A DNA stretch of 64,000 nucleotides from Coriobacteriia bacterium (GCA_009779855.1 WRBC01000004.1:30769-94768); one strand, 5' to 3'; shown: positions 340-18,948, counted from the first letter of the stretch. The notes: generated by a model from the letters alone, not told the origin. Made by a program: numbers and translations.

Positions 340-341
340 AA

Positions 342-2355: not shown

Positions 2356-2357
2356 TT

Positions 2358-3476: not shown

Positions 3477-3533
3477 TGTGTTTACCGAAGTATTTGCTGC
3501 AAGGCTAATTAACCGCAAGGAGTCTATTTATAT

Positions 3534-4508
3534 ATGACCGCGATAAAACCGCGCAAAAAGAAAGAATTGCTTACTTTTCAAAATGCCATATTGGCACTGC
3601 AAAATTACTGGGCGGATTATGGCTGCGTTATTCTTCAGCCCTACGACACAGAGGTTGGTGCGGGGACCTTTCATCCAGCCACTGTATTGCGTAGTCTAGG
3701 ACCAGATAGCTGGAATACAGCTTACGTGCAACCTTCACGTCGCCCTACAGATGGACGATACGGTGAAAATCCAAATCGCCTGCAGCACTACTACCAGTTC
3801 CAAGTCATATTAAAGCCAAGTCCTGATAACGTGGTTGATCTCTACTTTAGCTCGCTTAAGGCTATCGGTATTGACCCAGCACAGCATGATATGCGCCTTG
3901 TTGAAGATGACTGGGAGTCTCCGACATTGGGTGCATGGGGCCTAGGTTGGGAGGTTTGGTTAAACGGGATGGAGGTTACTCAGTTTACTTACTTCCAGCA
4001 AGTTGGAGGATTTGAGTGTAAGCCAGTGCCTGCAGAGATAACCTATGGACTAGAGCGCCTAATGATGATTGTCCAAGATGTTGACAATGTATATGACCTA
4101 GTGTGGACCTTGTCTCCTGATGGTAGTCCTGTTAGTTATGGCGACGTGTTCAAGATTAACGAACGGCAGTACTCTGCCTACAATTATGAGGTCGCAAGCG
4201 TGCCAATGCTACTGGGCCTCTTTACGCAATTTGAAAAAGAGTGTACCCAGGCTCTAGAGGCAGAATTGCCTATTCCTGCCTATGACTATGTACTGAAGTG
4301 TAGCCATGTTTTTAATATGCTTGATGCGCGTGGTGCTATCAGCGCAACAGAGCGTCAGGCATACATTATGCGTGTTCGTAATCTTGCGAAGCTTTGTTGC
4401 GAAGGGTACCTGAATATCTTGCCTGATGACGGGGACGCGGGTCAGAAGAAAGAAAGAGGATGTGTGGATAAAGATAAGGAAGCTGCTGTGAAAGGGGGCG
4501 ATGCGTAA
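3534..4508 (+). CDS. glyQ: glycine--tRNA ligase alpha subunit
   Basis: '[34 protein letters not shown]' and '[23 protein letters not shown]' are hallmark GlyQ sequences. The stop overlaps the glyS start (TAATG). Confidence 0.95.
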
Positions 4509-6637
4509 TGGAGATTAAGCCCTATACCGCAGACTTGCTTTTTGAAATAGGGGCAGAAGAAATGCCCTCTACTCCCCTTAATGCGGCACATAAGCAATTA
4601 GAGGTACTTGCAAAAACTGCTTTTAGTGATGCGCGACTTAGCTATGAAGGTCTAGAGGTTTTTTCGACTCCTCGTAGACTATCCTTGCTAGTGAAGGCTA
4701 TTGCAGAGCGTCAAGAGGATATCAGGCTTGAATTTAAAGGACCTTCGAAACAGATTGCCTATGCAGAGGATGGGACTCCCCAGAAAGCATTGGAAGGGTT
4801 TGCTCGTGGCAAGGGTGTTGATTTAGAAGATGTTGAATTGCGCATTATTGATGGCGCAGAATATGTATACGCTGTTAGGGACGAAAAAGGACTTCCTGCT
4901 AAGGAAATACTTCCTGATCTTTTACAGGGGCTTATTACGGGGCTTGACTGGCCAAAGCGTCAAAGATGGGGCAGTGGAGATGAGACCTTCATTCGTCCTG
5001 TGCGTTGGATCCTGGCAATTTTGGGTCAAGATCTCATCCCTTTAAATTTTGGAAAGCTGCAGTCAGGAAATTTCACATATGGACACCGCTTTCTCTCGAC
5101 TCAACAGATTCCTATAGCTGCAATGCGCGAGTACAAAAATGTCCTACGGGGCAATAAGGTTATTGTTGACCAGGGTAAGCGCAGACAGATGATTCTTGAA
5201 AGCATTGCAGAGTATACTGCCCAACTACCTGAACCTGGTAGTCTAGCCCTTGTGCCAGATAAGGTTCTTGATGAGGTTGTAAACCTTGTAGAATACCCTA
5301 ATGCACTACTTTGCTCTTTCGAGGAAGAGTTCTTGCGAGTCCCGCGTGAAATTCTTGAATACGCCATGAATTCGCACCAGCGTTACTTTGCGATACAGTC
5401 AGAGGACGGCAGTTTAAGCAATCATTTTATCGTTATTTCTAATGGGGATCCCTTGCATGGTCAGCAGATTGCTGCAGGTCATGAGAGTGTTATTCGTGCA
5501 CGTCTAGCTGACGCAGCATTTTTCTATGATGAAGATTTGAGGGTTGGTCTTGATGGATGGCGAAAAAAGCTTGGCACCTTGCTATTCCAGCAAAAATTGG
5601 GAACCCTAGCGGATAAAAGCTTGCGCGTCACAAGACTCGTTGCTTATCTTTGTGAGGACTTAGACCTTCCCGCACAAACTACACAATCCGCCCTGCGCGT
5701 AGCAGAGCTTGCAAAGGCAGATCTGACAAGTAATACCGTAATTGAGTTTACGGAGCTTCAGGGTGTGATTGGTGCTTACTATGCTAAGGCTCAGGGTGAA
5801 AGTGACGAAGTGGCTGAAGCAATACGGCAGCATTATCTACCTCGTTATTCAGGTGATGATTTGCCAGCCAGCACTGAAGGACAATTAGTTTCGCTTGCCG
5901 ATAAGGTTGACACGGTAGTTGGTATTATCGCGGCAGGCTTTGCTCCGAAGGGGACAAGTGATCCTTATGCGCTGCGCAGAAATGCCATTGGTGTTTTGCG
6001 CATAGTTATGGACAGGCTTCCTCTTAATGTTGAGAAACTAATTAGAGAGGCTATAAAATCCCTGCCAGAGGGATTGAAGACGAACGAAAGCGGGCCTGAG
6101 GGGTCTGAAGACTGCACGGAAGAGTTGGTTCAAAAGGTTCTGAGGTTCTTTACTTCACGCCTTGACAGCATGTTACGTGACAGGGATTACTCAACAGAGG
6201 TTATTTCTGCCGTGCTTGCTGCAGCTGCCCAGAGCCCTGCTGATAGCGCGGCACGCTGTGAGGCTTTGCACGCTTTCTTAGGGGAGAGCAGTGCATGGGA
6301 AAACCTGTCTACAGCATATACACGTGCTAAAAATCTGAGTGATCCAGAGGCAGGTGTGAGCGTTGATGTTGCACTCCTTGATCAGCATGAGCAGGCGTTC
6401 TATGACGCGCTTGTTTCAGCAGGACCACGTATCCAAGTGCAGCTTGCTGAACAGCGCTATAGTGATTATTTAAGTGAGCTTGCTGATGTGCGCGAACCTC
6501 TGGATGCCTTCTTTGACAACGTAATGGTTATGGATGAAGATGAAACCTTGCGCCGGAATAGGTTGGCATTGCTTAATGTGTTTATAGCTCAGGTAGAACC
6601 CTTTGCTGACCTGCGAAGACTGTCGAAGCAGAAATAA
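4508..6637 (+). CDS. glyS: glycine--tRNA ligase beta subunit
   Basis: 709 aa, translationally coupled to glyQ. It has the N-terminal 'LLFEIGAEEMP' and internal 'YFAIQSEDG', 'GTSDPYALRR' GlyS motifs. Confidence 0.95.
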   Translation: MEIKPYTADLLFEIGAEEMPSTPLNAAHKQLEVLAKTAFSDARLSYEGLEVFSTPRRLSLLVKAIAERQEDIRLEFKGPSKQIAYAEDGTPQKALEGFARGKGVDLEDVELRIIDGAEYVYAVRDEKGLPAKEILPDLLQGLITGLDWPKRQRWGSGDETFIRPVRWILAILGQDLIPLNFGKLQSGNFTYGHRFLSTQQIPIAAMREYKNVLRGNKVIVDQGKRRQMILESIAEYTAQLPEPGSLALVPDKVLDEVVNLVEYPNALLCSFEEEFLRVPREILEYAMNSHQRYFAIQSEDGSLSNHFIVISNGDPLHGQQIAAGHESVIRARLADAAFFYDEDLRVGLDGWRKKLGTLLFQQKLGTLADKSLRVTRLVAYLCEDLDLPAQTTQSALRVAELAKADLTSNTVIEFTELQGVIGAYYAKAQGESDEVAEAIRQHYLPRYSGDDLPASTEGQLVSLADKVDTVVGIIAAGFAPKGTSDPYALRRNAIGVLRIVMDRLPLNVEKLIREAIKSLPEGLKTNESGPEGSEDCTEELVQKVLRFFTSRLDSMLRDRDYSTEVISAVLAAAAQSPADSAARCEALHAFLGESSAWENLSTAYTRAKNLSDPEAGVSVDVALLDQHEQAFYDALVSAGPRIQVQLAEQRYSDYLSELADVREPLDAFFDNVMVMDEDETLRRNRLALLNVFIAQVEPFADLRRLSKQK

Positions 6638-6647
6638 GTACCCTCTG

Positions 6648-7499
6648 ATGAATGAAGAAAAGAGACAATTAACACTGCACATATTGAGCGATTCAGTTGG
6701 GGAGACCGCTGATACTGTTGCACATATTATTGCGATTCAGTTCCCCCAATTCCACTGGAATTATGTCTCGACAACCATGATTGACAGTGTTGAGACTCTT
6801 CATGAGGCAGTACTTCCGCACCGGGGGGATCCAAATTACATATTTGTCTATACATTTACGAGCCCCGTTTTGCGTGAAGAGATGATCAGCCTCTGCCATC
6901 CAGATGAAGGAGAGGCAAATTGCGTACACTCTGTTGATGTATTGGGTGGCGGCCTCGATTTAGTGACTGACCATACAGGAGAGCCACCCTCAGGGATGGT
7001 GGGGATGCTCCATCAGGTTGATGATACCTATTTTAGTCGCATTGCAGCCATGGAATTTACGGTTAATCATGATGACGGGCAATTACCTGAAAGCCTGACA
7101 GAGGCAGATATTGTTCTAATCGGGGTATCACGTACCTCAAAGACTCCTTTGTCAATGTATCTGGCGCATCGCGGATTTAAAACGGCAAACATTCCTTTGA
7201 CCTTAGAAACAGAGCCTCCTCAACAGCTGTTCGAGGTTGAGTCTCGTAAAATATTTGGCCTTATGACGGGCATGGACACGCTAACAAAGATACGTCAGGA
7301 GCGGATGTCAGATATTGGCACCTATGTTCCTAGTTATGCTGACCCTAATTACGTACAGAAAGAATTCGACTACGCTCGCAAGCTTATGCGTCAGTTAGGC
7401 GCACTAATTATTAACACGGAAAAGCGTGCAATAGAAAGTGTGGCTCAAGAAATATTAGCTCATCTAAAACCGACTATGCGAAACACCTTAAATCGCTAG
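6648..7499 (+). CDS. pyruvate, phosphate dikinase / PEP synthase regulatory protein (DUF299 kinase/pyrophosphorylase)
   Basis: 'LHILSDSVGETA' N-terminus and the 'LIGVSRTSKTPLSMYLA' P-loop are typical of the PpsR/PDRP family. The ORF track begins at 6603 inside glyS; ATG 6648 is the likely start. Confidence 0.8.
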   Translation: MNEEKRQLTLHILSDSVGETADTVAHIIAIQFPQFHWNYVSTTMIDSVETLHEAVLPHRGDPNYIFVYTFTSPVLREEMISLCHPDEGEANCVHSVDVLGGGLDLVTDHTGEPPSGMVGMLHQVDDTYFSRIAAMEFTVNHDDGQLPESLTEADIVLIGVSRTSKTPLSMYLAHRGFKTANIPLTLETEPPQQLFEVESRKIFGLMTGMDTLTKIRQERMSDIGTYVPSYADPNYVQKEFDYARKLMRQLGALIINTEKRAIESVAQEILAHLKPTMRNTLNR

Positions 7500-7543
7500 T
7501 AAGGTGACCCTAGTTGCCAGAAAGGTTACAGCAGTCTACATTC

Positions 7544-7571
7544 TTGACATATGAACGCACGTTCGATAATC
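7544..7571 (+). promoter_or_regulatory. candidate recA promoter (TTGACA -35, GATAAT/ATAATC -10)
   Basis: TTGACA lies at 7544-7549 and a gATAAT-like hexamer at 7565-7571, 15-16 nt apart. The site is ~140 nt upstream of the recA start. Confidence 0.5.
7553..7564. promoter_or_regulatory. LexA (SOS / Cheo-type) box GAAC-N4-GTTC
   Basis: GAACGCACGTTC is a perfect palindrome, extended to tGAACgcacGTTCGa. It sits between the -35 and -10 of the candidate recA promoter. Confidence 0.7.
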
Positions 7572-7710
7572 TAGTTCCGTTCAAATTCACAGGTATTGAC
7601 AAATATCTATCGCAGTAGCACAGTAGGAAGCGAACTCTCACAGTTGCGCAACCGGCAAGGCCTTTGGCTGATAAACGATGAAGTCAGCAGAGGTCAGAAA
7701 CGGAGACATA

Positions 7711-8727
7711 ATGGATACAAGTAAAGAGCAAATGTTAGATCTGACACGTGAACAGATTGAAAAGAAGTACGGAAAAGGATCCATCATGAAGTATGGTGAG
7801 GATTCGCAATTGGCTGTCGAGGTGATTCCTACAGGCTCACTTGCTATTGATGCTGCTTTAGGTGTGGGAGGGGTTCCGCGTGGTCGCGTTGTAGAAATAT
7901 TCGGACCAGAATCTAGTGGTAAAACTACCCTAGCCCTTTCAATTCTTGCAGAAGCCCAGGCTATGGGTGGTGTTGCAGCCTTTATTGATGCAGAACATGC
8001 GCTTGATCCGACTTATGCGGCACGTTTAGGTGTTGACTTGGATGAAATTCTTGTTTCTCAGCCAGACACAGGGGAGCAAGCACTTGAAATTTGTGACATG
8101 CTAGTGCGCAGTGGCGCTATTGACATTGTGGTTGTTGATTCGGTAGCGGCCTTGACTCCTCGTGCAGAAATTGAAGGAGAGATGGGGGATGCAACCGTAG
8201 GTGCTCAGGCTCGCCTTATGAGTCAAGCACTGCGTAAGCTAACGGGCTCTTTGTCAAAATCGAATACTACCTGTATCTTTATTAATCAAATTCGTGAAAA
8301 AATTGGAGTAATGTATGGTAGCCCTGAAACTACAACAGGTGGACGTGCGCTAAAATTCTTCTCGACAGTTCGAATTGATATACGTAGGGGAGAAGCCATT
8401 AAGCAGGGAACAGAGATTCTGGGCAATCGCACCAAGGCAAAGATTGTAAAAAATAAGGTTGCTCCACCTTTTAGAATCGCAGAGTTTGACATTATGTATG
8501 GTGAGGGCATTAGCAAAGAATCTTCCATCTTAGATTTAGGTGTTGCGCAGGGCATCCTGAAGCGCTCTGGTGCCTGGTACACCTATGGTGATGAAAGGCT
8601 TGGCCAGGGTAGAGAGGCAGCAAAAGAAACCTTGCGCACTAATCCTGAAATGAGTCTTGAAATCGAGACAGCAGTACGTGAAAAACTGGGGATGCTTAGA
8701 CCTGCAGATAGTGAAACAAAAGAATAA
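7711..8727 (+). CDS. recA: recombinase RecA
   Basis: '[12 protein letters not shown]', Walker A '[12 protein letters not shown]' and '[10 protein letters not shown]' are present. ATG 7711 follows a GGAGA SD; the ORF-track start is 7678. Confidence 0.97.
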
Positions 8728-8772
8728 ATTGGTGTAACGATGCCTATCTTAGAATCCTAGACGTCTCTCGTT

Positions 8773-9237
8773 ATGATGACTGATGGTGCCTGCAAAGAGG
8801 CTGCCTATGAAGAAGCAAGGAAGTGTGCTCATCGCATAATTAAGGCGCGCGAGAAAACTTCCCATGACCTACTTAAGCGCCTTCAAGAGAAGGGCTATAG
8901 TTTAGGGGCATCAGAAGATGTGGTTAAGCGCTTTATTGAGGTAGGTCTTGTAGACGACCTGCGCTACACCGAGCTCTATATCAGAAGTGCTCAGTACTCT
9001 TGTAAAGGATGGAGTCGTATAGTTCGCGAATTGCGACAACGGGGCATAGACACAGAGTATCTAGATCCGCCACTTGAAGAGGATGAACTGGAGCGTGCCA
9101 GGGCCGTGATTGCACGCCTTAGTCTTGATACGCATAAGGACCGTGACAAGGCTCTTCGTCGTTTGCAGAATAAGGGATTTTCTTACGGTGTTGCGAAGCA
9201 GGCAATTTCTAGGCAAATTGATGGTGAAGTCTTTTAA
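8773..9237 (+). CDS. recX: recombination regulator RecX
   Basis: 154-aa helical-repeat protein immediately downstream of recA. The 'DDLRYTELYIRS' and 'LRQRGID' repeats are RecX-like. Confidence 0.75.
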   Translation: MMTDGACKEAAYEEARKCAHRIIKAREKTSHDLLKRLQEKGYSLGASEDVVKRFIEVGLVDDLRYTELYIRSAQYSCKGWSRIVRELRQRGIDTEYLDPPLEEDELERARAVIARLSLDTHKDRDKALRRLQNKGFSYGVAKQAISRQIDGEVF

Positions 9238-9268
9238 CTCTGGTATACTTTGTCACTGTGTTTAACGT

Positions 9269-9344
9269 GGGGCCTTAGCTCAGCTGGGAGAGCGCATGGC
9301 TGGCAGCCATGAGGTCAGGGGTTCGACCCCCCTAGGCTCCACCA
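9269..9344 (+). tRNA. tRNA-Ala (anticodon GGC)
   Basis: Folded by hand into a 76-nt cloverleaf. Acceptor stem is GGGGCCT/AGGCTCC with the G3:U70 alanine identity pair. D-arm is GCTC-AGCTGGGA-GAGC. Anticodon stem is CATGG/CCATG with loop CTGGCAG. T-arm is AGGGG-TTCGACC-CCCCT, and the CCA is encoded. Confidence 0.93.
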
Positions 9345-9345
9345 T
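9300..9345 (+). repeat. attL: core (ctggcagccatgaggtca) plus tRNA 3' half within the intact tRNA-Ala
   Basis: Direct repeat of 18903-18948. The only 5 differences form two compensatory T-stem pairs plus one T-loop base. Confidence 0.85.
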
Positions 9346-9400
9346 CATTTTCGCAGGTCAGAAGCTTGTCAGCTACCTCTCTACTTTTATTGAAGATTAT

Positions 9401-9424
9401 TTTGCCGCAAATCTGCCGCAAATG
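9401..9424 (+). repeat. arm repeat, left copy (tttGCCGCAAATctGCCGCAAATg)
   Basis: 24 nt identical to 18785-18808. It contains an internal tandem 9-mer GCCGCAAAT at 11-bp periodicity and lies between attL and the integrase 3' end. Confidence 0.7.
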
Positions 9425-9452
9425 CTTTTACTTTGCCTACATTTTCGCAATC

Positions 9453-10655
9453 TTAAAGTTTGCTATCCCTGTTCCTTGGAACATGATTTTCCTTGATTTT
9501 CCTAGCGTAACTTTCTTTTGCTTCTGTTATTACAGATGTGAATACTTCTGCGACTTCTTTACCACTGCCAGACACGGTTCGTCCGTATACGTCTAGAGTC
9601 ATAGCACTTGTTGCATGTCCGACTCGCTCTTGTACCTTCTTGACATCGACACCAGCATCAAGTAAGTAAGAGATTTGCGTGTTCCGTGTCTCATGCGTAA
9701 CATAATGAGAAAGTCCGACCTTCTCAAGGTACTCTTTACGCCATCGTGAATAGTTTCGATAGTCGTGCCTATTGCCTATTTGGTCTGTGATAATAGGAGT
9801 TGTTGCCAATTGTTCCGTATCCCATTCAGATAGAATATTTTGTTGTGTCACTTGCCACTCTTTTAAGCATTGCAGCGTATCACCGTCCAAATAAACAAGT
9901 CTCTCCTCACCTGACTTTGTTGACTTGATTTCCATATAGGGAGTTATAGACTGTTTTATAATTATTCCACCATCTTCAAAATCTATATGTCTCCACTCAA
10001 GTCCTAACACTTCTCCAATTCTCACTCCCAATACCGCTGCTAAGCGAACTCCAATTACGCGAGGGTCTGAACTGCCTTCAGATTCTAACGCCGTAAACAG
10101 CTTGCCTAGGTCTGTCTTTTCAAATGGTTGGCGGTTTGGGATATCTCTGCGAGGAGTTTTCAATTTGTTCATGGGGTTTGATAAGCGGTAATCATTAAGT
10201 ACTGCTTCATTCATGATTTGACTGCATTTTTTATGGACAGCAAGCATCGTTGTGTTTCCAAGGTTGTATCTTTTCTTGATTTTGGCAAGAGCCGATTTAA
10301 TGGTTGAGGCATCTAGTTCTTTGATTGCTATGTCACCAATAATAGCGTTCAATCGATTAATGTATAACCGTTCTTGCTCAAGTGAGCCACGACCAACCTC
10401 ATTAGCCTCAATTCTAGCGTCATGCCACATTTGAGCAAACTGACCAAAGGTAGCAGTATCAGCATCTAACCGCATTCCGTTCTCTATTTCCATTCGCAGT
10501 TCAGCAAGCGCACGAGTAGCATCTGCCTTGCTCCCTTTGATGTTTCTATATTTACGGCGGTACTTGCCAGTTAGCGGGTCACGACCATAAGGCTGACAGA
10601 TTTCCCAGCTCTTCTTGCCACGCTTACGAATACTCCCTGCTCCACGACATTTCAT
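9453..10655 (-). CDS. int: tyrosine-type site-specific integrase
   Basis: 400 aa. The N-terminal 'GSIRKRGKKSWEI...DPLTGKYRRKYRN' is an arm-binding-type domain. Catalytic motifs are 'RIGEVLGLEWRHID', 'HETRNTQISYLL' and 'GHATSAMTLDVYGR'. The gene is adjacent to the tRNA. Confidence 0.93.
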   Translation of the reverse strand: MKCRGAGSIRKRGKKSWEICQPYGRDPLTGKYRRKYRNIKGSKADATRALAELRMEIENGMRLDADTATFGQFAQMWHDARIEANEVGRGSLEQERLYINRLNAIIGDIAIKELDASTIKSALAKIKKRYNLGNTTMLAVHKKCSQIMNEAVLNDYRLSNPMNKLKTPRRDIPNRQPFEKTDLGKLFTALESEGSSDPRVIGVRLAAVLGVRIGEVLGLEWRHIDFEDGGIIIKQSITPYMEIKSTKSGEERLVYLDGDTLQCLKEWQVTQQNILSEWDTEQLATTPIITDQIGNRHDYRNYSRWRKEYLEKVGLSHYVTHETRNTQISYLLDAGVDVKKVQERVGHATSAMTLDVYGRTVSGSGKEVAEVFTSVITEAKESYARKIKENHVPRNRDSKL

Positions 10656-10658
10656 AAA

Positions 10659-11828
10659 TTACTCGTCCTTCCCTCTTGGCACAAGTTCACGGTTGTAATA
10701 AACTCGACATTGATCCGAGCAATATCTTGTTTTCTTTGTCATTCTTGCAATAGGTCGCTGACAGTATGCACAAAATGGGTGAGGACTATTGTTCAGAATG
10801 GAGGCAGCCGTGAAAATCAATTCTTCCCATACATTTGTTGCCTTCCCTCTTGTGTACAGATTTCTATTTCTATCAAAGAAGAAGTGAGATGCTGATGTCA
10901 CATGCCTATCAATTAATGTATTGAGTAGAAGCTCCACCAACATTGGGGCGCAGTCACGGATGTAATCTTCGCGCGACTTTTCACTTGAAAGGTCTTTTAT
11001 TTCTTCGGTAAGGTAGATGGTTGCCAATGTATAGTTACCATTTACCTTTTTGGTTGGGTAGTTGTTTTCTAAAAATGGATGCGTGACGGCATTAGGAATG
11101 AAGTCATCCACAAAGTTATCGGTATCGTTTAGCATCAAAACAGACGATGTCAAGACAATGTCTTTAACTCCAGGAGTGTCGGTATCAATATGCTTTTTTG
11201 TGACAGTGATGTTTTCTGCATTTCCAATTAGTTCTGCTGCTTCACTCAAAAGAAAGCCAACAAAATAATTGCCCCTGCTATTTTTTTCAAAGATGAAACG
11301 TTTTCCAATATCGGATGCTATGCCATGAACCTTGGATATGGGCATAATATCTTCTCCGTTATTATCTTTGACATAGATGTTGCTGCCGATTGCTGCCAAC
11401 TGAAGCATTGTTCTTAGGAGTGTTTGAGCGTGGAAGAAGGTAGGCACATCAAAGAAGCGTCTATTCGATTTGCCCTCATTGCGTTCGACTTGTTTTTCCG
11501 TAAGATAGATTGGTTTTGCGCTACGTAAATAGCTTTGCAGATTTTCTTTGGGGGCGAAGAGGTGGGGGATTGAATAGCTTGCTGCATAACGAGATTCAAA
11601 AACAGGCCATTTATAACGCATAAAGTTTTCTAGCTCGCCCCAAGAGTTAACCTTGAGGAACTTTCCTAAAATCTCCCGCTGCTCTTTTTCGCACTCGACA
11701 TTCCAAGATTCATCAGAATCAGCGATTAGCAGCATAACATCTTTGTTAACTGCAAGCAGCTTACTTGGCAAAAGCATGTTACCTCCGTTCGGTGTTACGC
11801 AAAATGGAGTTATTTTTGCGAGTTCCAT
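10659..11828 (-). CDS. hypothetical protein with C-terminal CxxC...CxxxC zinc ribbon (Stl-like position)
   Basis: 389-aa ORF whose stop is 3 nt before the int start, so the two are co-transcribed. C-terminus is 'FCAYCQRPIARMTKKTRYCSDQCRVYYNR'. I recognise no other family. Confidence 0.6.
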   Translation of the reverse strand: MELAKITPFCVTPNGGNMLLPSKLLAVNKDVMLLIADSDESWNVECEKEQREILGKFLKVNSWGELENFMRYKWPVFESRYAASYSIPHLFAPKENLQSYLRSAKPIYLTEKQVERNEGKSNRRFFDVPTFFHAQTLLRTMLQLAAIGSNIYVKDNNGEDIMPISKVHGIASDIGKRFIFEKNSRGNYFVGFLLSEAAELIGNAENITVTKKHIDTDTPGVKDIVLTSSVLMLNDTDNFVDDFIPNAVTHPFLENNYPTKKVNGNYTLATIYLTEEIKDLSSEKSREDYIRDCAPMLVELLLNTLIDRHVTSASHFFFDRNRNLYTRGKATNVWEELIFTAASILNNSPHPFCAYCQRPIARMTKKTRYCSDQCRVYYNRELVPRGKDE

Positions 11829-11831
11829 ATA

Positions 11832-11875
11832 TTGTTACGTAAATATAAGATTATTCGTAACAATAGATTACGTAA
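11832..11875. promoter_or_regulatory. operator-like repeats in the divergent promoter region
   Basis: TTGTTACG (11832-11839) and CGTAACAA (11856-11863) form an inverted repeat. The palindrome TTACGTAA occurs twice (11835-11842 and 11868-11875), 33 bp apart. All lie between the leftward orf389-int and the rightward xis-rep genes. Confidence 0.5.
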
Positions 11876-11932
11876 AAGAATATACCGCAACAGTTGAGGG
11901 TATGTCAAAACGAAAAAGTAAGGAGAGGGTAC

Positions 11933-12163
11933 ATGCAACAGTTAGATGCCAAAGAGCAAGAATCCAAAGTGACTGGGATTTCATCAGAGCTTTCGGATTA
12001 TCCAAAGGTGCTAAGCGTGAAGCAGGCGGCAAAAATACTTACCGTTTCGCCACAAACGATAAGGAAGCTGCTGTACGAAAAGCAGCTACATGGTCGCCTC
12101 GTAGGCAAGCACTGGAAAATTAGATTGTCTGAAATTGACAGGTTTCTTGGAGGTCAATCATGA
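11933..12163 (+). CDS. xis: excisionase-family helix-turn-helix DNA-binding protein
   Basis: 'LSVKQAAKILTVSPQTIRKLLYEKQLHGRLVGKHWKIRLSEIDRFL' is a MerR/Xis-type HTH_17 signature. ATG 11933 follows an AAGGAGAGGG SD; the ORF-track start is 11894. Confidence 0.75.
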   Translation: MQQLDAKEQESKVTGISSELSDYPKVLSVKQAAKILTVSPQTIRKLLYEKQLHGRLVGKHWKIRLSEIDRFLGGQS

Positions 12164-12170
12164 GTAGGCA

Positions 12171-12215
12171 CCTATTAAGACTACGACCCTATTATGTGAC
12201 TTGTGCCATGTGCCA
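12171..12215 (+). promoter_or_regulatory. candidate rolling-circle double-strand origin (nick motif plus short repeats)
   Basis: gACTACGAC at 12179-12187 matches the pMV158-family nick sequence TACTACG/AC in 8 of 9 positions. It is bracketed by direct CCTATTA repeats (12171-12177 and 12188-12194). Tandem TGTGCCA x2 follows at 12202-12215. The site is just upstream of rep. Confidence 0.5.
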
Positions 12216-12236
12216 GACAAGCAGGAGGTTAACAAA

Positions 12237-12821
12237 ATGAGTAAAGCAACCAAAACAAGAAATTGGGCAGGAATTATCTACCCCGATAGTGCGCCATCTG
12301 ATTGGCTAGATGTATTAAAGGACTTGCGCATGAAGGTGCTTGTATCACCCCTGCATGACAAAGATGTAGATGAGGATGGCAATGCCAAGAAGCCTCACCA
12401 TCACATCATTCTTATATTTGATGGGCCGCAAACACAGAATCGTGTTAGTGAAATCTTTACAGCACTCGGAGGAGTAGCAACGATACAGCGTGTAAACTCC
12501 CTTTCCAGCCATACTCGCTATCTCGCTCACCTTGATAATCCTGAAAAAGCACAATACAGCCCTGATGACATCATTGCGTTTGGCGGGATTGATCCTATTG
12601 ATCTTTTGGGATCATCGCGAAGCAGTGCCGAAATGACCGCTCTCATAAATGAGATTTGTGATAAGTGCGCAGAACTTGGGATAGTTGAGTTTTCTAAGTT
12701 GATTGATTACACACGTAAAGAGCAGCCCAATTGGTTATTTTTTGCGTACAACAATGTTCATTTTTTTGACCGTTACTTATCAAGTTGCCGTCACATACGG
12801 AATATGGAAAACAGAAGATAG
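12237..12821 (+). CDS. repB: rolling-circle replication initiator / relaxase-like HUH protein, pMV158 RepB (Rep_2) family
   Basis: 'WAGIIYPDSAPSDWLDVL', 'LVSPLHDKDVDEDG', 'KKPHHHIILIF' and 'HTRYLAHLDNPEK' parallel pMV158 RepB 'YPESIPSDW', 'SPLHDKD', 'KKAHYHVLY' and the catalytic-Tyr 'YLYLTHES'. ATG 12237 follows a GGAGG SD. Confidence 0.85.
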   Translation: MSKATKTRNWAGIIYPDSAPSDWLDVLKDLRMKVLVSPLHDKDVDEDGNAKKPHHHIILIFDGPQTQNRVSEIFTALGGVATIQRVNSLSSHTRYLAHLDNPEKAQYSPDDIIAFGGIDPIDLLGSSRSSAEMTALINEICDKCAELGIVEFSKLIDYTRKEQPNWLFFAYNNVHFFDRYLSSCRHIRNMENRR

Positions 12822-12858
12822 AGGGCATGTTAAAGCCAAGACGATTAGGAGAGTAGTA

Positions 12859-13455
12859 ATGTCTAAGAAAGTAGAAAAGTGGCTAAAGCCAGAAGGCTTA
12901 AAGCAGATTGAGGAATGGGCAAAGCAGGGCATTAGTAAGCACGGCATAGCCCTCATGATGGGTGTTCACAGAACGACCCTTTGGGAGTGGTGCAAAGAAC
13001 ATGAGTCCTTGCGAATTGCCGTAGAGATTGGACGTGAGTATCTTATACAGGATTTACAGTTAGCCCTTTACAATGCTGCTCTTGGTGAAGTTGCAACGGA
13101 AGCCACAGTCATCGAAACCGAAGTTTTCCTAGATGGACGCGAGGCAGTTAGAAAAAGAAATACAACCACCCGAAAAGAGAAGCCAGATACGACTGCTCTG
13201 ATTTTCCTTTTGAAAAACTTGTCGCGCTACCATCCTGTTAGCAATCCAGATGGCTGGTTATCTGATCCTGCTACTCAATTTAGCAGAGAGTTGACAATGA
13301 TGATGAACGGCTTGGTAAAAGCCCCTGAAGTCTTTGCACTGGTGGCAGAAGAAATCAACACCTTGCCAGACTTAGCAGCAGTAACCGCACGCACAATTGA
13401 GAAAAACAATGCCAAATATAAATTAAGTTCAACAGAGGACACTTCAAAAGAATAA
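12859..13455 (+). CDS. terS: phage terminase small subunit-like protein
   Basis: N-terminal HTH 'GISKHGIALMMGVHRTTLWEWCKEH' and central 'LALYNAALG ... KPDTTALIFLLKN' resemble the TerS family motif (PDTTAxIFWLKNR). ATG 12859 follows an AGGAGAG SD; the ORF-track start 12703 overlaps rep. Confidence 0.65.
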   Translation: MSKKVEKWLKPEGLKQIEEWAKQGISKHGIALMMGVHRTTLWEWCKEHESLRIAVEIGREYLIQDLQLALYNAALGEVATEATVIETEVFLDGREAVRKRNTTTRKEKPDTTALIFLLKNLSRYHPVSNPDGWLSDPATQFSRELTMMMNGLVKAPEVFALVAEEINTLPDLAAVTARTIEKNNAKYKLSSTEDTSKE

Positions 13456-13772
13456 TCCGACAAATCCGACACCAGAAAAGGGCGCACATCACAATCGGTT
13501 GCTTTGAGGTATATTGTCATTGAATGCGATAATTGCTCCTGCAGAAAATAATCGAGTTAGTCGCCCAATGTGTCTAAGGATCGAGAGAAATAGTGAACAC
13601 TTGCAAAAGGTGTACATCACCACATAGCTCCAAGAGTATGTATAACCGCACTGCCAAAGGTACTATCTGTGAGAAAACAGGTCGTGATGTTACGGACAGT
13701 TCATTCAAGTGGATAGAAAATAATCGCTGTGAAAAATACATTGAATGTTCTTGCATCAGCACGATTTGTAGC

Positions 13773-13967
13773 CTATGTGCTGCGCCAGAAAAATAGCGGG
13801 AAACTTGTGGAAATAAACATCACACCCACTGTCATGGCTGCGAAGTCATTAACTACTGTGTGAGATTTAGACCAAAAGAATAAATGACGCAGTTCATGTG
13901 GTGGTGCGCCAGAGTACAGGGAGTGCTTGCTGTTCTGCACATCTTCTCGTTCCTGCGTACAGAACAT
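13773..13967 (-). CDS. small ORF with HEXXH motif (possible remnant of an ImmA/IrrE-like metallopeptidase)
   Basis: 64 aa, preceded by a strong GGGAGGAA SD 7 nt before the ATG. It contains 'PPHELRHLFF' (HEXXH). It is too short for a full peptidase and the surrounding ~1 kb is coding-poor. Confidence 0.3.
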   Translation of the reverse strand: MFCTQEREDVQNSKHSLYSGAPPHELRHLFFWSKSHTVVNDFAAMTVGVMFISTSFPLFFWRST

Positions 13968-14230
13968 AAGAGATTCCTCCCGTAAAGAGTAGACTGCTGC
14001 TATCGCGGACTAGACATCTACTCCCCACTCCCCGTGTGTACATTTTAGCAAGATTTTCTTCTATGGCAGTTTCGCCTACCTCAATATATTAAGCTCTGTA
14101 ACGGCTTCTGCTTAAACCCCATCCTTTTTGCTTGCTTCACAAGCTCGACAACTCGGGGGATATTATTGGTTGATAGTTGGCAGGTGCTGATATACGTCTT
14201 CGACGCTGTAGCCTTGCGCTATAATCGTAT

Positions 14231-14355
14231 CTGCCTTAACTGCTGGAGACAGTAGACTAACAACTTCATACTTGTGTCAATCACACCATAATGGGGCGTA
14301 ATCCTCATAACTTGGTGTGGTTGCAGTTTTCTGTTTCCCGCAGCAGTTAAGGCAG
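14231..14355 (+). promoter_or_regulatory. structured leader: perfect 15-bp long-range stem enclosing a 7-bp hairpin
   Basis: CTGCCTTAACTGCTG (14231-14245) is the exact reverse complement of CAGCAGTTAAGGCAG (14341-14355). The inner pair is CACACCA (14283-14289) / TGGTGTG (14313-14319). TATAAT at 14220-14225 lies just upstream and the cargo operon starts at 14433. Confidence 0.4.
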
Positions 14356-14432
14356 GGGATTGCGCCTTCTTGTCTGTTTTTGTGCGCTTACCCTTGCTCT
14401 GTTGATAAAGCAACTGAAGGGAAGTGATCGTT

Positions 14433-14885
14433 ATGTCTACTAAGAAGCCTAATGCCAATCCAAGTCCTGGACTTAATATAGCAACCTTAAAGAAGCCGTT
14501 TCTGATTTCTTTTACTGCCTCTTTCGTGGCTATGGTGGTGTTTGTGCTTGGGTTTTTCATTTGGCAAGGTGGCAGAATCCCTTTTGGTGGGCTGCTCTAC
14601 TTTGTTGCTCTATCGTTCGTTATATGTTGGATTGTATCTCTGCCAATTAGCGTTGCAAGCATAGTGCTTAAAAGACCAGTTCTTATTGCTTTCGTTGTTG
14701 CGTATCTTGTGTTGGCAATCTTTTTGTTTAGTAGACCCATAGGATTTGTTGAACTCACTATAGCGTTTGCTATTTCCGCAGTCATTCTTTTGCTTGTTTT
14801 TGTACCAATCGCAAAAAAGAAATACTCCAGTGAAAAGTCGAAAGAAGATATTGTGGCAATGTTGAAAGACATTGACTCCGATTAG
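14433..14885 (+). CDS. small integral membrane protein (about 4 TM segments), unknown function
   Basis: About 150 aa with four hydrophobic stretches ('FLISFTASFVAMVVFVLGFFIW', 'LLYFVALSFVICWIVSLPISV', 'VLIAFVVAYLVLAIFLF', 'LTIAFAISAVILLLVFVPI') and a charged C-tail. It is the first gene of the cargo operon. Confidence 0.6.
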   Translation: MSTKKPNANPSPGLNIATLKKPFLISFTASFVAMVVFVLGFFIWQGGRIPFGGLLYFVALSFVICWIVSLPISVASIVLKRPVLIAFVVAYLVLAIFLFSRPIGFVELTIAFAISAVILLLVFVPIAKKKYSSEKSKEDIVAMLKDIDSD

Positions 14886-14904
14886 GCTTGTGATAGGAGG
14901 ATAA

Positions 14905-15453
14905 ATGAAAATAGCAACTGTAAAAGCAAGCGGCAAGGTCATCGACTTCAAAGATAATGTGTTTTTGATTGATGGTCAGAGTGCTGCCAAAAGTCGGATT
15001 GAGGAATACGATCGTCTGGGTGTTCTTGAATGGGCAAATAGTGAAGTCCGCGACTATGCTTTGAGCAGCCAATCAGCAACTGTTGCTGTCAACACAAGAC
15101 ATGCCCCATTAGGTACGACAATAGAAACTGGCAGTAGTGATGCGGCTTGGTCGAAGTACATTGTCATTGCCATAACAGTGATAGTTATTGGTGTTGTAGG
15201 AGCATTTGCTATCAGTTGGTACATTGATGAGCAGTCCATACAGACTGGTCATGTTGTAGAAGTATTTTCGCACGATAGAAGCACTGGAAATAGATACGTT
15301 ATTGTTTCTGATAATAATAGCAATAGGGGTCATCTTGCGAGGACTCACCGTGATGTTTCAGTTGGTGACACAGTGCGCTTTAGGTTACAGGATGATAGTG
15401 CGAGGCGAGCCAGCATGGGCTTAACAGATATAACAATCATTTCTGTAAGATGA
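14905..15453 (+). CDS. single-pass membrane protein, paralog 1 (shared N-module, TM, small beta-rich C-domain)
   Basis: GGAGG SD upstream. The N-terminal 43 aa align without gaps to paralog 2 (F15, F20, DGQ23-25, EYD34-36, LG38-39, LEW41-43). The TM is 'YIVIAITVIVIGVVGAFAISWYI'. Confidence 0.65.
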   Translation: MKIATVKASGKVIDFKDNVFLIDGQSAAKSRIEEYDRLGVLEWANSEVRDYALSSQSATVAVNTRHAPLGTTIETGSSDAAWSKYIVIAITVIVIGVVGAFAISWYIDEQSIQTGHVVEVFSHDRSTGNRYVIVSDNNSNRGHLARTHRDVSVGDTVRFRLQDDSARRASMGLTDITIISVR

Positions 15454-15489
15454 CAAGATAAAGAGTGCATAAGCAGGAAGGGTGGCAAA

Positions 15490-16056
15490 GTGGAAATAGC
15501 AAAGCTCACAGGCACAGAAAAAGTATTATGTTTCGACAAGGGAACATTTAGTCTTGATGGTCAAGTGATTGATGCAGCAAAGTTAGCAGAGTATGACAAT
15601 CTCGGTATCCTTGAGTGGAAAAGTGATGAGTTGCAGCTGCTTGCGTACTCAATGATTCAAAACACCACAACAAATGCGCCTGCAGCAGATGCGTCAAATG
15701 CTCAATCTCAACAGCAGAACCAAGGCGGTTTTAGCGGAGAACGTGATGGACGCATATATCTCAATGATGTAGACATCACCAATGAAGACCCTTACTGGCA
15801 AGAGGAGTTTATTAAGATATATCAGAGCAAGGGTAGCTATACAGGAAAGTTCAACTGGGCTGCATTTCTTGCGGGGGCATTTTGGTTCTTTGCTAAAAAC
15901 TTGCCTGTTGTTGGCTTGATTTGGACTGCGGTAGCCATTGTTGGCGGTCTATTGACTGCCAGCGTTTTAGCGATAGGTGTATGGATACTTGCTGGTTTTA
16001 GGGCAAACTACATCAGATATAAAAAGGTTATCGAACACACAGAAATCTACTTCTAG
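15490..16056 (+). CDS. membrane protein, paralog 2 (shared N-module, Q/N-rich linker, DUF2628-like 2-TM C-domain)
   Basis: GTG start after a GGAAGGGTGG SD. N-module is 'FSLDGQVIDAAKLAEYDNLGILEWKSDE'. The C-terminal 'KFNWAAFLAGAFWFFAKNLPVVGLIW' resembles DUF2628. Confidence 0.65.
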   Translation: MEIAKLTGTEKVLCFDKGTFSLDGQVIDAAKLAEYDNLGILEWKSDELQLLAYSMIQNTTTNAPAADASNAQSQQQNQGGFSGERDGRIYLNDVDITNEDPYWQEEFIKIYQSKGSYTGKFNWAAFLAGAFWFFAKNLPVVGLIWTAVAIVGGLLTASVLAIGVWILAGFRANYIRYKKVIEHTEIYF

Positions 16057-16065
16057 GAGAGCTGA

Positions 16066-16998
16066 ATGAAAAAGCAAGTGGCAACATTTATCGCAGGATC
16101 ATTTTCTAACGTTGGCGAAGGTTTGTGGCGAGACGATAGAGGTGCATACTTTGTCGGTGGTGAGATGCCAATATCTACAGAGCGCATCGAAGAAATGGAC
16201 ACTCTAGGAGAACTGGAGTGGCTTTCTGGTGAGAGGTTAATGTTGTCACCTAGTGAGGCGGCTAGTGAGCAACAAGCTCATGAGAAGCCCCAGAATACAA
16301 TCGGTGAAATAGGCTTCACAGAAGCAGAGGAAGTCGCAGAGGAGGCTTCTGCTGCTGCGATAGAGCCTAAAGCATCAGCACAAGAAGAAACATCAAGTAC
16401 AAAAAAGAAGAAACTATCTTTGATTGCAGCTATTGTAGCCGCTGTAACCATCGGCATAGTTGCTGCTGTGCTTCTGTTGGGTCAGACTAGCGATGAATCT
16501 ACTGGTGAGCCACCAGTTGTTATTGACATGTCTGACCTGGGATTATCAGAACCAGAGGATGCTCCCGAACCAGAGCCTGTAGAAGAGCAAGAGCTAGGGG
16601 AATCTGCGCTGGAGTCAGAACCTTCCTTTTACGGCGTTACAGATGAGCAGTTTGACAGAGAGATGGGTGAAGCTCGCTCTGACATTGAATATTACGGACG
16701 CTATGCTGACGAGTTCTTCCCAGAAGAAGGATTTTACGGAATATGGGTATCAGCTAGTAGAGATAGGATAGAAGCAGAAAGAACACTCACCCAAGTTCTT
16801 GATAGACTGTTTGAAAGTGAAGGACTAGGTGCTGGTCTTGTTACTACAAGTTCTTGGAGTAACCTTAACCCAGATGTGTGGCACGCTGTTTGTGTCGGGC
16901 CATTTCTTTCTCAAGCAGAAGCTGAAGCAGCACTAGCAGCTGTAAGGGCAGCAGGATATAGTGATGCTTACGTTAAGTTTAGTGGGGCGATACGGTAG
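16066..16998 (+). CDS. single-pass membrane protein, paralog 3 (shared N-module, acidic linkers, TM, SPOR-like C-domain)
   Basis: N-module 'RIEEMDTLGELEWLSGE' is offset by 9 aa. The TM is 'LSLIAAIVAAVTIGIVAAVLLLG'. The C-terminal 'FYGIWVSASRDRIEAERT...WHAVCVGPFLSQAEAEAALAAVRAAGYSDAYVKF' follows the SPOR peptidoglycan-binding pattern. Confidence 0.65.
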   Translation: MKKQVATFIAGSFSNVGEGLWRDDRGAYFVGGEMPISTERIEEMDTLGELEWLSGERLMLSPSEAASEQQAHEKPQNTIGEIGFTEAEEVAEEASAAAIEPKASAQEETSSTKKKKLSLIAAIVAAVTIGIVAAVLLLGQTSDESTGEPPVVIDMSDLGLSEPEDAPEPEPVEEQELGESALESEPSFYGVTDEQFDREMGEARSDIEYYGRYADEFFPEEGFYGIWVSASRDRIEAERTLTQVLDRLFESEGLGAGLVTTSSWSNLNPDVWHAVCVGPFLSQAEAEAALAAVRAAGYSDAYVKFSGAIR

Positions 16999-17031
16999 GT
17001 ATCTTGCAGTCTCTTGGATGAGGAGTCGATT

Positions 17032-17982
17032 ATGGAGCAATGCGAGGAAAGCTATGGGATTACAGCAAGTATAGGTGTGGACTTCTCTGTTTCAGAAGAT
17101 GGACGTATCTACATTGCTGACATATCTGCCCTTTCAGCCAATGCACTACTTGAAATCTATGCAACCAGTAGAGGCACTAGTTTTTTACAGGACAAGTTTG
17201 TGGCATTAGTTGCAGATGGAGAGATTATTTCAAAAGGAAGTCTGCCCTTTGGAAATGCTACGTTGCGTAGAGTTACAGATAGACTTGCTAGTGTGACGAT
17301 AAGCGAGGGGCAGGTTAAGGTTAAACTTCAGAAGCGACTTCCTGGAGAGCGTAGCACCATACGCTCAAGACTATGGAAAAAGAAATGCTTGACCTGTTCA
17401 GATGGAAGTGATGATTCTCCCAGTAGGATAGAGTCTGCAAAAGAAGACTGTCACCTAGAAGAACTCAAACAAAATCTAAAGGAGTTAGATGTCTTCGTAA
17501 AGAACTCACGCGGAATCACAGCAGAGGAATACGAGAAGACAGAAAGCATCAATAATGCTCCTCCGCAATATACTGTCAAAATAAGGCAAGGTAATCCGCT
17601 TAGAGCCATTGTTAGTCGCAGCTTTGAGTATATAGATTACAGGCAAGCTGAACATGAGCGCATCATGGGAGAGAAAGTAAGGGTCTTACAGAGTCAAAAG
17701 AATATGCGGCTGTGCGAAGTTGAAGAACGTACAGGCGGAGACTATGTCATTTATGGTCTTACCCATTTTAGGAAAACCTTAGAAGATAAGATTCACTTCG
17801 TCTCTGAAAACCCAGAACAGTTTGCAGAAAAAGAGCCGTACCCTAGAGAGGTAGAAGATATTGCTGCTGACCTTGTTTGGGATGGGGTGTATGAAAATCC
17901 CTATCATCGTGAACCAGAATGTCATAAACGAGTAGTCCGAGAATATATCGACAGGCTGGAAGACTACTATTGGCGACTATAG
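17032..17982 (+). CDS. hypothetical cytoplasmic protein, no recognisable domain
   Basis: About 316 aa, charged, with no TM segment. ATG 17032 follows a GGATGAGGAG SD; the ORF-track TTG start is 17014. It follows paralog 3 by about 30 nt on the same strand. Confidence 0.55.
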   Translation: MEQCEESYGITASIGVDFSVSEDGRIYIADISALSANALLEIYATSRGTSFLQDKFVALVADGEIISKGSLPFGNATLRRVTDRLASVTISEGQVKVKLQKRLPGERSTIRSRLWKKKCLTCSDGSDDSPSRIESAKEDCHLEELKQNLKELDVFVKNSRGITAEEYEKTESINNAPPQYTVKIRQGNPLRAIVSRSFEYIDYRQAEHERIMGEKVRVLQSQKNMRLCEVEERTGGDYVIYGLTHFRKTLEDKIHFVSENPEQFAEKEPYPREVEDIAADLVWDGVYENPYHREPECHKRVVREYIDRLEDYYWRL

Positions 17983-18032
17983 CCGAGAAGCTAACCTTGT
18001 CTACGCTATAATGAAGTTGCTCAACTGAAGGT

Positions 18033-18485
18033 ATGGCAAGGAGAAAACACTTGAAGGTATATCTCGACATTTGCTGCTTTAATCGTCCTTTTGACGATCA
18101 AGTGCAGCTCAAGATTAAACTAGAGACTGATGCCAAGTTATTTGTGCAACAGCAGATTCTGCTAGGGAAATATCAGCTAGTGTGGTCATATATTCTTGAC
18201 TATGAAAACAGTAAAAGCCCTTTCAAAGAGCAGAGCCGAGCAATAGCTGCGTGGGAGAAGCTCTCCTGCGAAACTATTGACGAAACACCTGCTGTGCTTG
18301 CTCGTGCTAAGAAACTAATAGACTCTGGCATAAAGACAATGGATGCCTTGCACATTGCCTGTGCCGCAGAGAGTGGCTGTGATTACTTTATTACAACTGA
18401 CCGCCGCCTACTTTCAGCGGCAGAGCCAGACGTTAAGATTGTAAACCCTGTACAATTCATTCAAGAGATTGAGGTGACAACATGA
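18033..18485 (+). CDS. PIN-domain protein (VapC-like toxin candidate)
   Basis: N-terminal acidic 'VYLDICCFNRPFDDQ' and C-terminal 'MDALHIACAAESGCDYFITTDRRLL' match the PIN-fold conserved Asp positions. Confidence 0.7.
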   Translation: MARRKHLKVYLDICCFNRPFDDQVQLKIKLETDAKLFVQQQILLGKYQLVWSYILDYENSKSPFKEQSRAIAAWEKLSCETIDETPAVLARAKKLIDSGIKTMDALHIACAAESGCDYFITTDRRLLSAAEPDVKIVNPVQFIQEIEVTT

Positions 18486-18688
18486 CCAGTGAAACCGTAC
18501 TAAAAAATGAAGGCTTGCAATTGCTCACTAAGCATCTGGGCATGGTAGAAGCTGAACGCTTTATCGCACTGATGGCTCGTGAGCCATTTGATTACACGGA
18601 ATGGCGCAGAGATAAGTTCGATGACGTTTCTCTTGAAGAGCTAAGTGCTGCTGCCATGAAGCATGTCAGTGCAAAGAGGAACATGTGA
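18482..18688 (+). CDS. small protein translationally coupled to the PIN gene (putative antitoxin/partner)
   Basis: 68 aa with an ATGA start/stop overlap with the PIN ORF. I recognise no family. Confidence 0.45.
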   Translation: MTSETVLKNEGLQLLTKHLGMVEAERFIALMAREPFDYTEWRRDKFDDVSLEELSAAAMKHVSAKRNM

Positions 18689-18784
18689 TAGGATTGATTG
18701 TCGTTGATTGTTCATAGCAGCTTTATGAGCAATCTAGTGGAGCAAGAAGGTGTCGAATGCAAGATGGAATTGTTGCCAGTAAAG

Positions 18785-18808
18785 TTTGCCGCAAATCTGC
18801 CGCAAATG
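18785..18808 (+). repeat. arm repeat, right copy (tttGCCGCAAATctGCCGCAAATg)
   Basis: 24 nt identical to 9401-9424 in the same orientation. It lies about 95 nt inside attR. Confidence 0.7.
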
Positions 18809-18902
18809 TGCAGCGTTTCAGGTAGTGCCAGATGTAGTCAACTAGCCTATCTACCTGCGCAGATAGTGCTAAACATTACCTGCTATTACCTATCTGAAAA
18901 CA

Positions 18903-18948
18903 CTGGCAGCCATGAGGTCACCGGTTCGATCCCGGTAGGCTCCACCAT
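18903..18948 (+). repeat. attR: core plus displaced tRNA-Ala 3' half (no 5' half present)
   Basis: ctggcagccatgaggtca is followed by T-arm ACCGG-TTCGATC-CCGGT, then AGGCTCCACCA. It starts exactly at the anticodon loop and the preceding sequence is unrelated to the tRNA. Confidence 0.85.

Follow-up and report, generated by a model that had tools for sequence, protein, structure and literature searches.

The 64,000-nucleotide window analysed here (positions 30769-94768 of contig C4, WRBC01000004.1, in assembly GCA_009779855.1) belongs to the 1.54-Mb metagenome-assembled genome (MAG) of a termite-gut Coriobacteriia bacterium, and it carries a mobile element at window positions 9345-18902, inserted at the tRNA-Ala(GGC) gene. 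The best overall explanation, and in our judgement a probable one, is a site-specific integrative element for which satellite-type transfer is favoured. That it integrates as a discrete mobile unit is close to certain, since three loci of the same species lack exactly the DNA between its terminal repeats. These loci were found by searching for proteins that exactly match RecX and the membrane protein encoded at position 19063. One hit, in ERZ27257297, contains the element at 100% identity to the window. In three others, from ERZ27257300 (L027), JGI 3300009826 (L028) and JGI 3300010049 (L037), window positions 1-9345 are joined straight to 18903 onwards, and the two alignments overlap by exactly a 46-nt repeat. 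The flanks of empty and filled sites are 99.91% and 99.78% identical, and a 9,603-bp unit is present or absent as one block within the species. We considered whether a divergent donor could have brought in the filled locus by homologous recombination, and rejected this. Apart from the T-arm of the tRNA, filled and empty sites show zero single-nucleotide polymorphisms (SNPs) over the 2.7 kb left of the element and the 1 kb right of it, and the flanking SNPs do not cluster at the junctions, which argues against such an import. Filled and empty sites share the same termite-gut samples, so excision and transfer are directly testable on existing material.

The tRNA-Ala(GGC) gene at the left border is the single tRNA called by ARAGORN in the window, with Rfam in agreement, and the single tRNA-Ala(GGC) gene among the 40 tRNAs of the MAG. 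An element inserting there must therefore restore the gene. The initial annotation had described a second copy of the tRNA 3' portion at 18903, with no 5' half upstream of it. Indeed, the longest direct repeat between positions 8500 and 20000 pairs the attL and attR blocks of Table 1 over 46 nt, reaching 18948, with 41 of the 46 positions identical, and upstream of 18903 there is no tRNA 5' half. Alignment reproduced exactly the pattern that had been reported, in which an 18-nt identical block is followed by five T-arm differences and a 13-nt identical block (TAGGCTCCACCAT). The differences between attL and attR are GG/CC at 9318-9319, C/T at 9327 and CC/GG at 9331-9332. We denote each T-arm allele by its 5' stem pair, T-loop base and 3' stem pair, so that attL is GG,C,CC and attR is CC,T,GG. 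The surroundings are also as first described, with a tyrosine integrase beside attL, recA and recX on the left, and genes for a membrane protein, a DUF218 protein and leuS on the right. We infer that the 5' part of the intact tRNA gene is host DNA and that its 3' part, from the anticodon loop on, is element-derived and lies within attL.

Strand exchange very probably takes place in the anticodon loop, in keeping with the earlier proposal of an anticodon-region crossover in which the element supplies the 3' half. The tRNA-derived block begins at the first base of this loop, and the candidate arm-type sites are placed symmetrically, 94 nt from the loop and from its copy. Four of the five GCCGCAAAT matches in the window fall at the element ends, against a chance expectation of 0.5. 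Two further element ends come from G007, a MAG that belongs to the same family but to a different genus and was recovered from one of the same samples. The first, on contig C4 of G007 (G007:C4), is a remnant of about 2 kb between recX and DUF218 that consists, in order, of a tRNA with GG,C,CC, one unrelated open reading frame (ORF), a PIN-domain gene (94% amino acid identity to the window copy), a 68-aa gene (98.5%) and the arm site, from which 94 nt lead to a displaced CC,T,GG half. This remnant is 94.5% identical to window positions 18001-18947 (947 nt) as compared to 60-94% for host proteins, which points to transfer between genera. The second, G007:C9, has the PIN gene (98%) and the 68-aa gene, followed by a 24-nt arm site of identical sequence, exactly 94 nt and then the displaced 3' half of tRNA-Ile(GAU), beginning at the anticodon loop CTGATAA. 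In two lineages with different target tRNAs, the border between element and tRNA thus falls on base 1 of the anticodon loop, and its distance from the arm sites is constant. A search of JGI metagenome contigs with the right-end pattern gave the G007 contig as its sole match, and the tRNA-core pattern in IMG/VR retrieved only full tRNAs of other hosts.

T-arm alleles compared across the order add to this picture. The GG,C,CC allele, with its T-loop C, is confined to the two element-bearing genomes. CC,T,GG is the intact tRNA allele in G002 (same genus as the window), G003 (same genus as G007), G011, G013 and G014; G001, G006 and five IMG/VR contigs have GG,T,CC. Alleles flip within both genera, as repeated element visits would produce. 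The distribution supports an origin of the GG,C,CC arm from the element, in which case CC,T,GG would be the displaced half of the host. A crossover inside the T-arm is excluded: the T-stems of the attL and attR copies are each internally and perfectly complementary, so that an exchange between stem halves cannot have produced them.

The empty sites are the main difficulty for an anticodon-loop exchange. The expectation had been that an empty site would show contiguous flanks and the ACCGG/CCGGT arm. The flanks in L027, L028 and L037 are contiguous as foreseen, but the arm is AGGGG-TTCGATC-CCCCT, that is GG,T,CC, which is 1 base from the attL arm and 4 from the attR arm. Simple anticodon-loop excision would restore CC,T,GG, and the empty sites do not fit this. 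One possibility is that two natural alleles, each present in the genus, coexist in the species. Another is that these are cured sites keeping a T-variant element arm, the element having been lost through the 13-nt 3' block. A third, which we consider improbable, is that the crossover lies in this 3' block after all, which would leave the tRNA at attL native nearly throughout and make the attR half, with its ACCGG/CCGGT arm, the element's attP sequence. The closeness of the empty sites to attL speaks for this, as does the occurrence of their arm in natural full-length tRNAs of G001, G006 and the five IMG/VR contigs. However, it requires the rare T-loop C to have arisen independently in two genera, in carriers only, and it leaves unexplained both the anticodon-loop start in the Ala and Ile lineages and the constant 94-nt spacing; G003, from the genus of G007, moreover has ACCGG/CCGGT as its intact tRNA. 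Exchange in the anticodon loop is the position that we retain.

Table 1. Features of the integrative element and its insertion site, in window coordinates
Feature	Position	Strand	Evidence or remarks
Intact tRNA-Ala(GGC)	9269..9344	+	ARAGORN; Rfam 62.9 bits; T-arm allele comparison
attL copy of the 46-nt core repeat	9300..9345	+	T-arm AGGGG-TTCGACC-CCCCT; proposed crossover in the 7-nt anticodon loop CTGGCAG, 9300-9306
P' arm-type site (candidate), 2 x GCCGCAAAT spaced 11 bp	9401..9424	+	starts 94 nt past the anticodon loop
Tyrosine integrase, 400 aa	9453..10655	-	PF00589 E 3.9e-19; R..HxxR..H..Y present
Orphan orf389, 372-389 aa	10659..11828	-	C-terminal CxxC...CxxxC zinc ribbon; ends 3 nt before the int start codon
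Divergent control region	11829..11932	.	promoter-like site
Excisionase-family helix-turn-helix (HTH) protein, 76 aa	11933..12163	+	TIGR01764 37.8 bits (cut-off 28.8); phrog_66; PF12728
ACTACGAC, candidate double-strand origin or origin of transfer (oriT)	12180..12187	+	match to the pMV158-family nick sequence; ~50 nt upstream of rep
RepB/pMV158-type rolling-circle initiator (Rep_OBD + RepB_C)	12237..12821	+	PF01719 E 1.5e-37; PF21861
Phage small-terminase (TerS) homologue, 198 aa	12859..13455	+	phrog_309 E 3e-25
Long imperfect hairpin, candidate single-strand origin	14215..14375	+	single-stranded DNA fold -34.6 kcal/mol, z = -6.9, 0/200 shuffles as good
Cargo operon: 150-aa membrane protein; three paralogous membrane proteins (182, 188, 310 aa); 316-aa soluble protein	14433..17982	+	
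PIN-domain protein and overlapping 68-aa partner	18033..18688	+	PF01850; kept at 94-98% amino acid identity in the two G007 element ends
P arm-type site (candidate), same 24 nt as 9401-9424	18785..18808	+	ends 94 nt before the anticodon-loop copy
Core-proximal P arm	18849..18902	+	100% identical to the G007:C4 remnant; the adjoining 36 nt differ at 14 positions
attR copy, displaced tRNA 3' half	18903..18948	+	T-arm ACCGG-TTCGATC-CCGGT, as in the intact tRNA of G002, G003 and G011

The catalytic residues of the integrase are all found by alignment, namely R (GVRIGE), HxxR (HETR), H (GHAT) and Y (DVYGR). In a set of 5.8 billion proteins no relative exceeds 27% identity, and GTDB representative genomes gave weak matches only, at 20-34% identity over the best segment. 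The leftward gene orf389 is co-transcribed with the integrase and possibly encodes a regulator or recombination accessory factor; a homologue search returned itself plus two weak matches, and no HTH match. Homology of orf389 to DUF6076 or to the recombinase-adjacent proteins of integrative mobilizable elements (IMEs) was tried and rejected, as only the zinc ribbon aligns (hhalign probability 44%). AlphaFold models of orf389 and TerS, with predicted local distance difference test (pLDDT) values of 34 and 51, respectively, were too poor for a fold search. Between orf389 and the excisionase gene, a strong leftward promoter-like site (TTGACA-18-TATATT) lies at 11908-11879.

Downstream of the excisionase gene the element encodes a Rep protein in which the HUH motif and the catalytic tyrosine are present, as aligned to the pMV158 RepB structures 8amt and 3dkx, and from its sequence features replication of the element by the rolling-circle mechanism appears likely. 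Replicons of the pMV158 family are nicked at TACTACG/AC in the origin and have a single-strand origin as well. The gene that follows encodes the TerS homologue, which is 32% identical over the whole of Tuc2009 TerS. In Tuc2009 and in Flavonifractor phage Chenonceau, the TerS gene stands directly before those for the large terminase (TerL) and portal. TerS homologues from the host's class, Coriobacteriia, occur in loci that look like prophages; in G019 two ORFs of 454 and 471 aa follow TerS on the same strand, and by their sizes they may be large terminase and portal. Domain scans of the element's own ORFs gave no TerL, portal, capsid, tail, lysis, FtsK-like (PF01580) or VirB4-like gene. After terS, a non-coding stretch of about 1 kb (13456-14432) holds the 160-nt hairpin, and it returned no six-frame Pfam or Rfam signal and no pseudogene traces.

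In the life cycle that we propose, the tyrosine integrase would have recombined attP with tRNA-Ala(GGC) by exchange in the 7-nt anticodon loop, with an attP made up of two GCCGCAAAT sites per side, 94 nt from the crossover, and a tRNA copy reaching from the anticodon loop to CCA. The 3' half brought by the element (AGGGG-TTCGACC-CCCCT) would complete a working gene at attL, and the host 3' half (ACCGG-TTCGATC-CCGGT) would be left unused at attR. Integrase and excisionase-family protein may then excise the element as a circle, which the RepB-type initiator is predicted to nick at ACTACG/AC (12180) and copy by rolling-circle replication, with the hairpin as putative single-strand origin. The PIN-domain protein and its 68-aa partner are probably a toxin-antitoxin or stabilisation pair, and as such could stabilise carriage. 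From cell to cell, the element would travel in capsids of a pac-type helper phage, packaging being directed by its own TerS homologue, as in satellites of the phage-inducible chromosomal island (PICI) type.

Satellite transfer in phage capsids is the route we favour, at slightly less than an even chance. Conjugative mobilisation seems rather unlikely by comparison and the lack of any dedicated route improbable, and the rest of the probability is assigned to no route. Several observations weigh against the life cycle proposed here. The hairpin around the ACTACGAC nick motif is not significant, and the exact attP pattern has no match in JGI metagenome contigs, where the excised circle was thus not seen. 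TerS finds only itself, and no close relative, in the 5.8-billion-protein set, and the MAG contains neither TerL (PF03354, PF03237) nor an HK97 capsid gene (PF05065), so that no helper phage is visible. Lastly, the six closest Rep homologues with context examined (45-50% identity) are all found in modules of serine recombinase, FtsK-like protein and Rep, and TerS is absent from all six loci. In these modules a leftward pair, the serine recombinase and a 300-436-aa protein, is divergent from small ORFs that are followed by FtsK_SpoIIIE and Rep. The recombinase-adjacent proteins have only the zinc-ribbon motif in common with orf389.

Because the closest Rep relatives sit in such modules, a mobilizable island is the main rival. 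Integration and excision would proceed as proposed above, and the RepB-type protein would be a relaxase acting at a ACTACGAC oriT, and a conjugative element resident in the same cell would lend its mating pore for travel; the role of the TerS-like protein would be that of a DNA-binding accessory factor only. We hold this to be doubtful. It draws on the module contexts themselves, on the C-terminal position of the zinc ribbon in the recombinase-adjacent proteins, like that of orf389, and on the description of streptococcal IMEs with tyrosine integrase, excisionase and PF01719 'relaxase' (PMC5357655). The module architecture around the Rep homologues is likewise that described for IMEs with PF01719 'relaxases' (PMC5357655), although the relaxase role of these proteins was itself inferred in that study. 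Against mobilisation, the element has no FtsK/TcpA-like coupling protein, the MAG has the chromosomal FtsK only and no VirB4-like match above cut-off, and a full-length phage TerS homologue, of which there is none in the related IME-like loci, is left unexplained. Metagenome contigs L063-L071 show how widespread and conserved the module around the Rep homologues is: a serine recombinase with a DUF6076-like or zinc-ribbon protein on one strand, and three small ORFs, a short FtsK_SpoIIIE protein and Rep_OBD/RepB_C on the other, with variable cargo after Rep that includes GmrSD-like and methylase genes in L069.

An integrative rolling-circle plasmid without dedicated transfer, alternating between an integrated and a plasmid state, stabilised by the PIN pair and moved between cells only by natural transformation or generalised transduction, would resemble an actinomycete integrative and conjugative element (AICE) without Tra, and we regard it as improbable. 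The host class, Coriobacteriia (Actinomycetota), would suit it, the host genes comEA, comEC and dprA are present, and AICEs of the pSAM2 type, which use tRNA genes as integration sites, join int and xis with a rolling-circle Rep (PMC2440964). However, the FtsK/SpoIIIE transfer protein that defines AICEs is absent from the element, Rep is of the pMV158 family and not of the pC194-like RepSA family, the TerS homologue is again unexplained, and the element has passed from genus to genus, with about 94% nucleotide identity. A decayed prophage remnant that has lost mobility is very improbable: int, xis and terS are of phage type and no circle was detected, but the layout is compact with all backbone genes intact, the non-coding kilobase has no pseudogene traces, the element is exactly absent from conspecific strains, related ends are present both in a different genus and at a second tRNA, and a plasmid-type Rep is not a caudovirus replication module.

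As for the origin of the proposed satellite, we tentatively suggest, at well below an even chance, a lineage with a mobilizable-island backbone in which the FtsK-like coupling protein was replaced by a phage small terminase, and whose integrase was retargeted between tRNA-Ala and tRNA-Ile with fixed geometry. The backbone would be a recombinase and zinc-ribbon partner, divergent from an excisionase and RepB-type initiator. If so, a mobilizable-island lineage would have switched vehicle from mating pore to phage capsids and given rise to a rolling-circle mini-satellite in Actinomycetota, and repeated visits would overwrite the T-arm of the single-copy tRNA-Ala, explaining the allele flips within genera. 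Because integrase, TerS and orf389 have no close relatives, all inference at the family level is drawn from the window species, both G007 fragments and Rep.

The cargo operon received no defence or function calls from PADLOC or NCBIfam, and the tRNA is the only Rfam hit in the element. Between 14905 and 16998, three consecutive membrane proteins have a common N-terminal module (..EYD.LG.LEW..) before the transmembrane helix and differ at their C-termini; the 310-aa paralogue carries a SPOR domain. A second island, on G000 contig C5:12000-31999 (L014, about 3170-15630), lies beside tRNA-Arg(CCT) and encodes a tyrosine integrase (28% identical to that of the window), an excisionase-like HTH protein and a 395-aa leftward orphan. 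It has three membrane paralogues in the same three-gene pattern, with a zinc-ribbon N-terminus instead, and the SPOR C-terminus of the last is 96% identical in amino acids to the product of window positions 16477-16998. This island also holds RtcB, an RF-1-domain protein and DprA, and a 17-nt exact copy of part of tRNA-Arg at L014 3170-3186 may mark its far end.

The chromosomal site shows variation of its own. In G002, about 2.9 kb (G002:C74, 4650-7597; L009) separate the intact tRNA-Ala from the homologue of the membrane-protein gene at 19063, and this insert comprises three unrelated genes (387, 168 and 237 aa) without integrase or repeat. The site downstream of tRNA-Ala is a variable hotspot. 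In G013 and G014, which belong to another family of the order (L012, L013), tRNA-Ala(GGC) lies directly upstream of leuS; the linkage of tRNA and leuS seems ancestral, the membrane-protein and DUF218 genes being later arrivals or having been lost in that family. Within the species, contigs of independent assemblies (L025 from ERZ27257304 and L026 from SRR10512951) stop exactly at window position 13301, and contig L031 begins at 18237. Variants that occur together may differ in the central part of the element; no repeat was found at the position of these contig ends, and no cause for them. In L031 the host flank is that of the window, but the PIN gene has 16 SNPs packed into 176 nt (18266-18441), only four of them in common with the G007:C4 copy. 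This cluster looks like a recombination patch, and the pattern implies that at least three PIN variants circulate. Farther along the window, comEC is one 777-aa ORF (Competence + Lactamase_B) in the element-bearing strain and is split by gene calling into ORFs of 483 and 287 aa in the empty-site strains, which have one extra T at 25635.

Among known systems, PICIs, including the Staphylococcus aureus pathogenicity islands (SaPIs), are similar in that int and a leftward gene are divergent from xis, with a replication gene and terS following. They also have in common a terS without capsid, tail, lysis or TerL genes, a size of about 10 kb, one specific site and accessory cargo. Unlike them, the window element has a rolling-circle initiator and not a primase/helicase with iteron origin, and the RepB-type nature of this gene places the element outside the pri-rep definition of PICIs. 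It also has no recognisable Stl-like repressor, ppi or cpm. The divergent position of the PICI master repressor, which a helper-phage protein relieves, is occupied by orf389, yet this is an orphan without an HTH match. [quoted passage not shown]

PICMIs and the marine virion-encapsidated integrative mobile elements (VEIMEs) are likewise small satellites without capsid-remodelling genes (PMC10803314, PMC9618062). The PICMI gene iolg, which overlaps int and is needed for excision, has the same position as orf389, and some VEIMEs, packaged as concatemers, possess TerS homologues (PMC10803314, PMC9618062). PICMIs differ by a primase, integration beside fis and the absence of terS (PMC10803314, PMC9618062), and both groups have marine Gram-negative hosts. 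The streptococcal IMEs with Rel_PF01719 (Coluzzi et al. 2017, PMC5357655) also combine a recombinase with a PF01719 Rep/relaxase. The serine-recombinase/FtsK/Rep modules of metagenomes have a Rep 45-50% identical to that of the window and a large zinc-ribbon protein co-transcribed with the recombinase. In contrast to both, the window element lacks the TcpA/FtsK-like coupling protein that is present in most members and in all six Rep contexts, its recombinase is a tyrosine and not a serine enzyme, and it encodes a TerS homologue downstream of Rep. AICEs such as pSAM2 (te Poele et al. 2008, PMC2440964) agree with it in an Actinomycetota host, a size of about 10 kb, the set of int, xis and rolling-circle Rep and a tRNA gene kept functional; the window element differs in having no FtsK/SpoIIIE Tra, spd, Nudix or Kor genes, in a Rep of the pMV158 and not the pC194 family and in a non-mycelial gut host.

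The integration module itself is like that of other anticodon-loop islands, with the integrase beside attL, a 46-nt att block from the anticodon loop to the tRNA 3' end, a restored gene and arm-type sites in both arms. Phage P22 at thrW is an example of tyrosine-integrase insertion at a tRNA anticodon loop, and tRNA-gene integration with a replacement 3' half is textbook biology, so that the core finding is ordinary. The window element stands apart from these islands in the isolation of its integrase, in the two compensatory stem pairs by which element-borne and displaced 3' halves differ, and in having sister lineages that target tRNA-Ala(GGC) and tRNA-Ile(GAU) with the same 94-nt arm geometry. 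The family therefore shows an integrase module retargeted from one tRNA to another with its attP geometry kept exactly, and the element-borne T-arm provides a mechanism for allele replacement in an essential single-copy tRNA.

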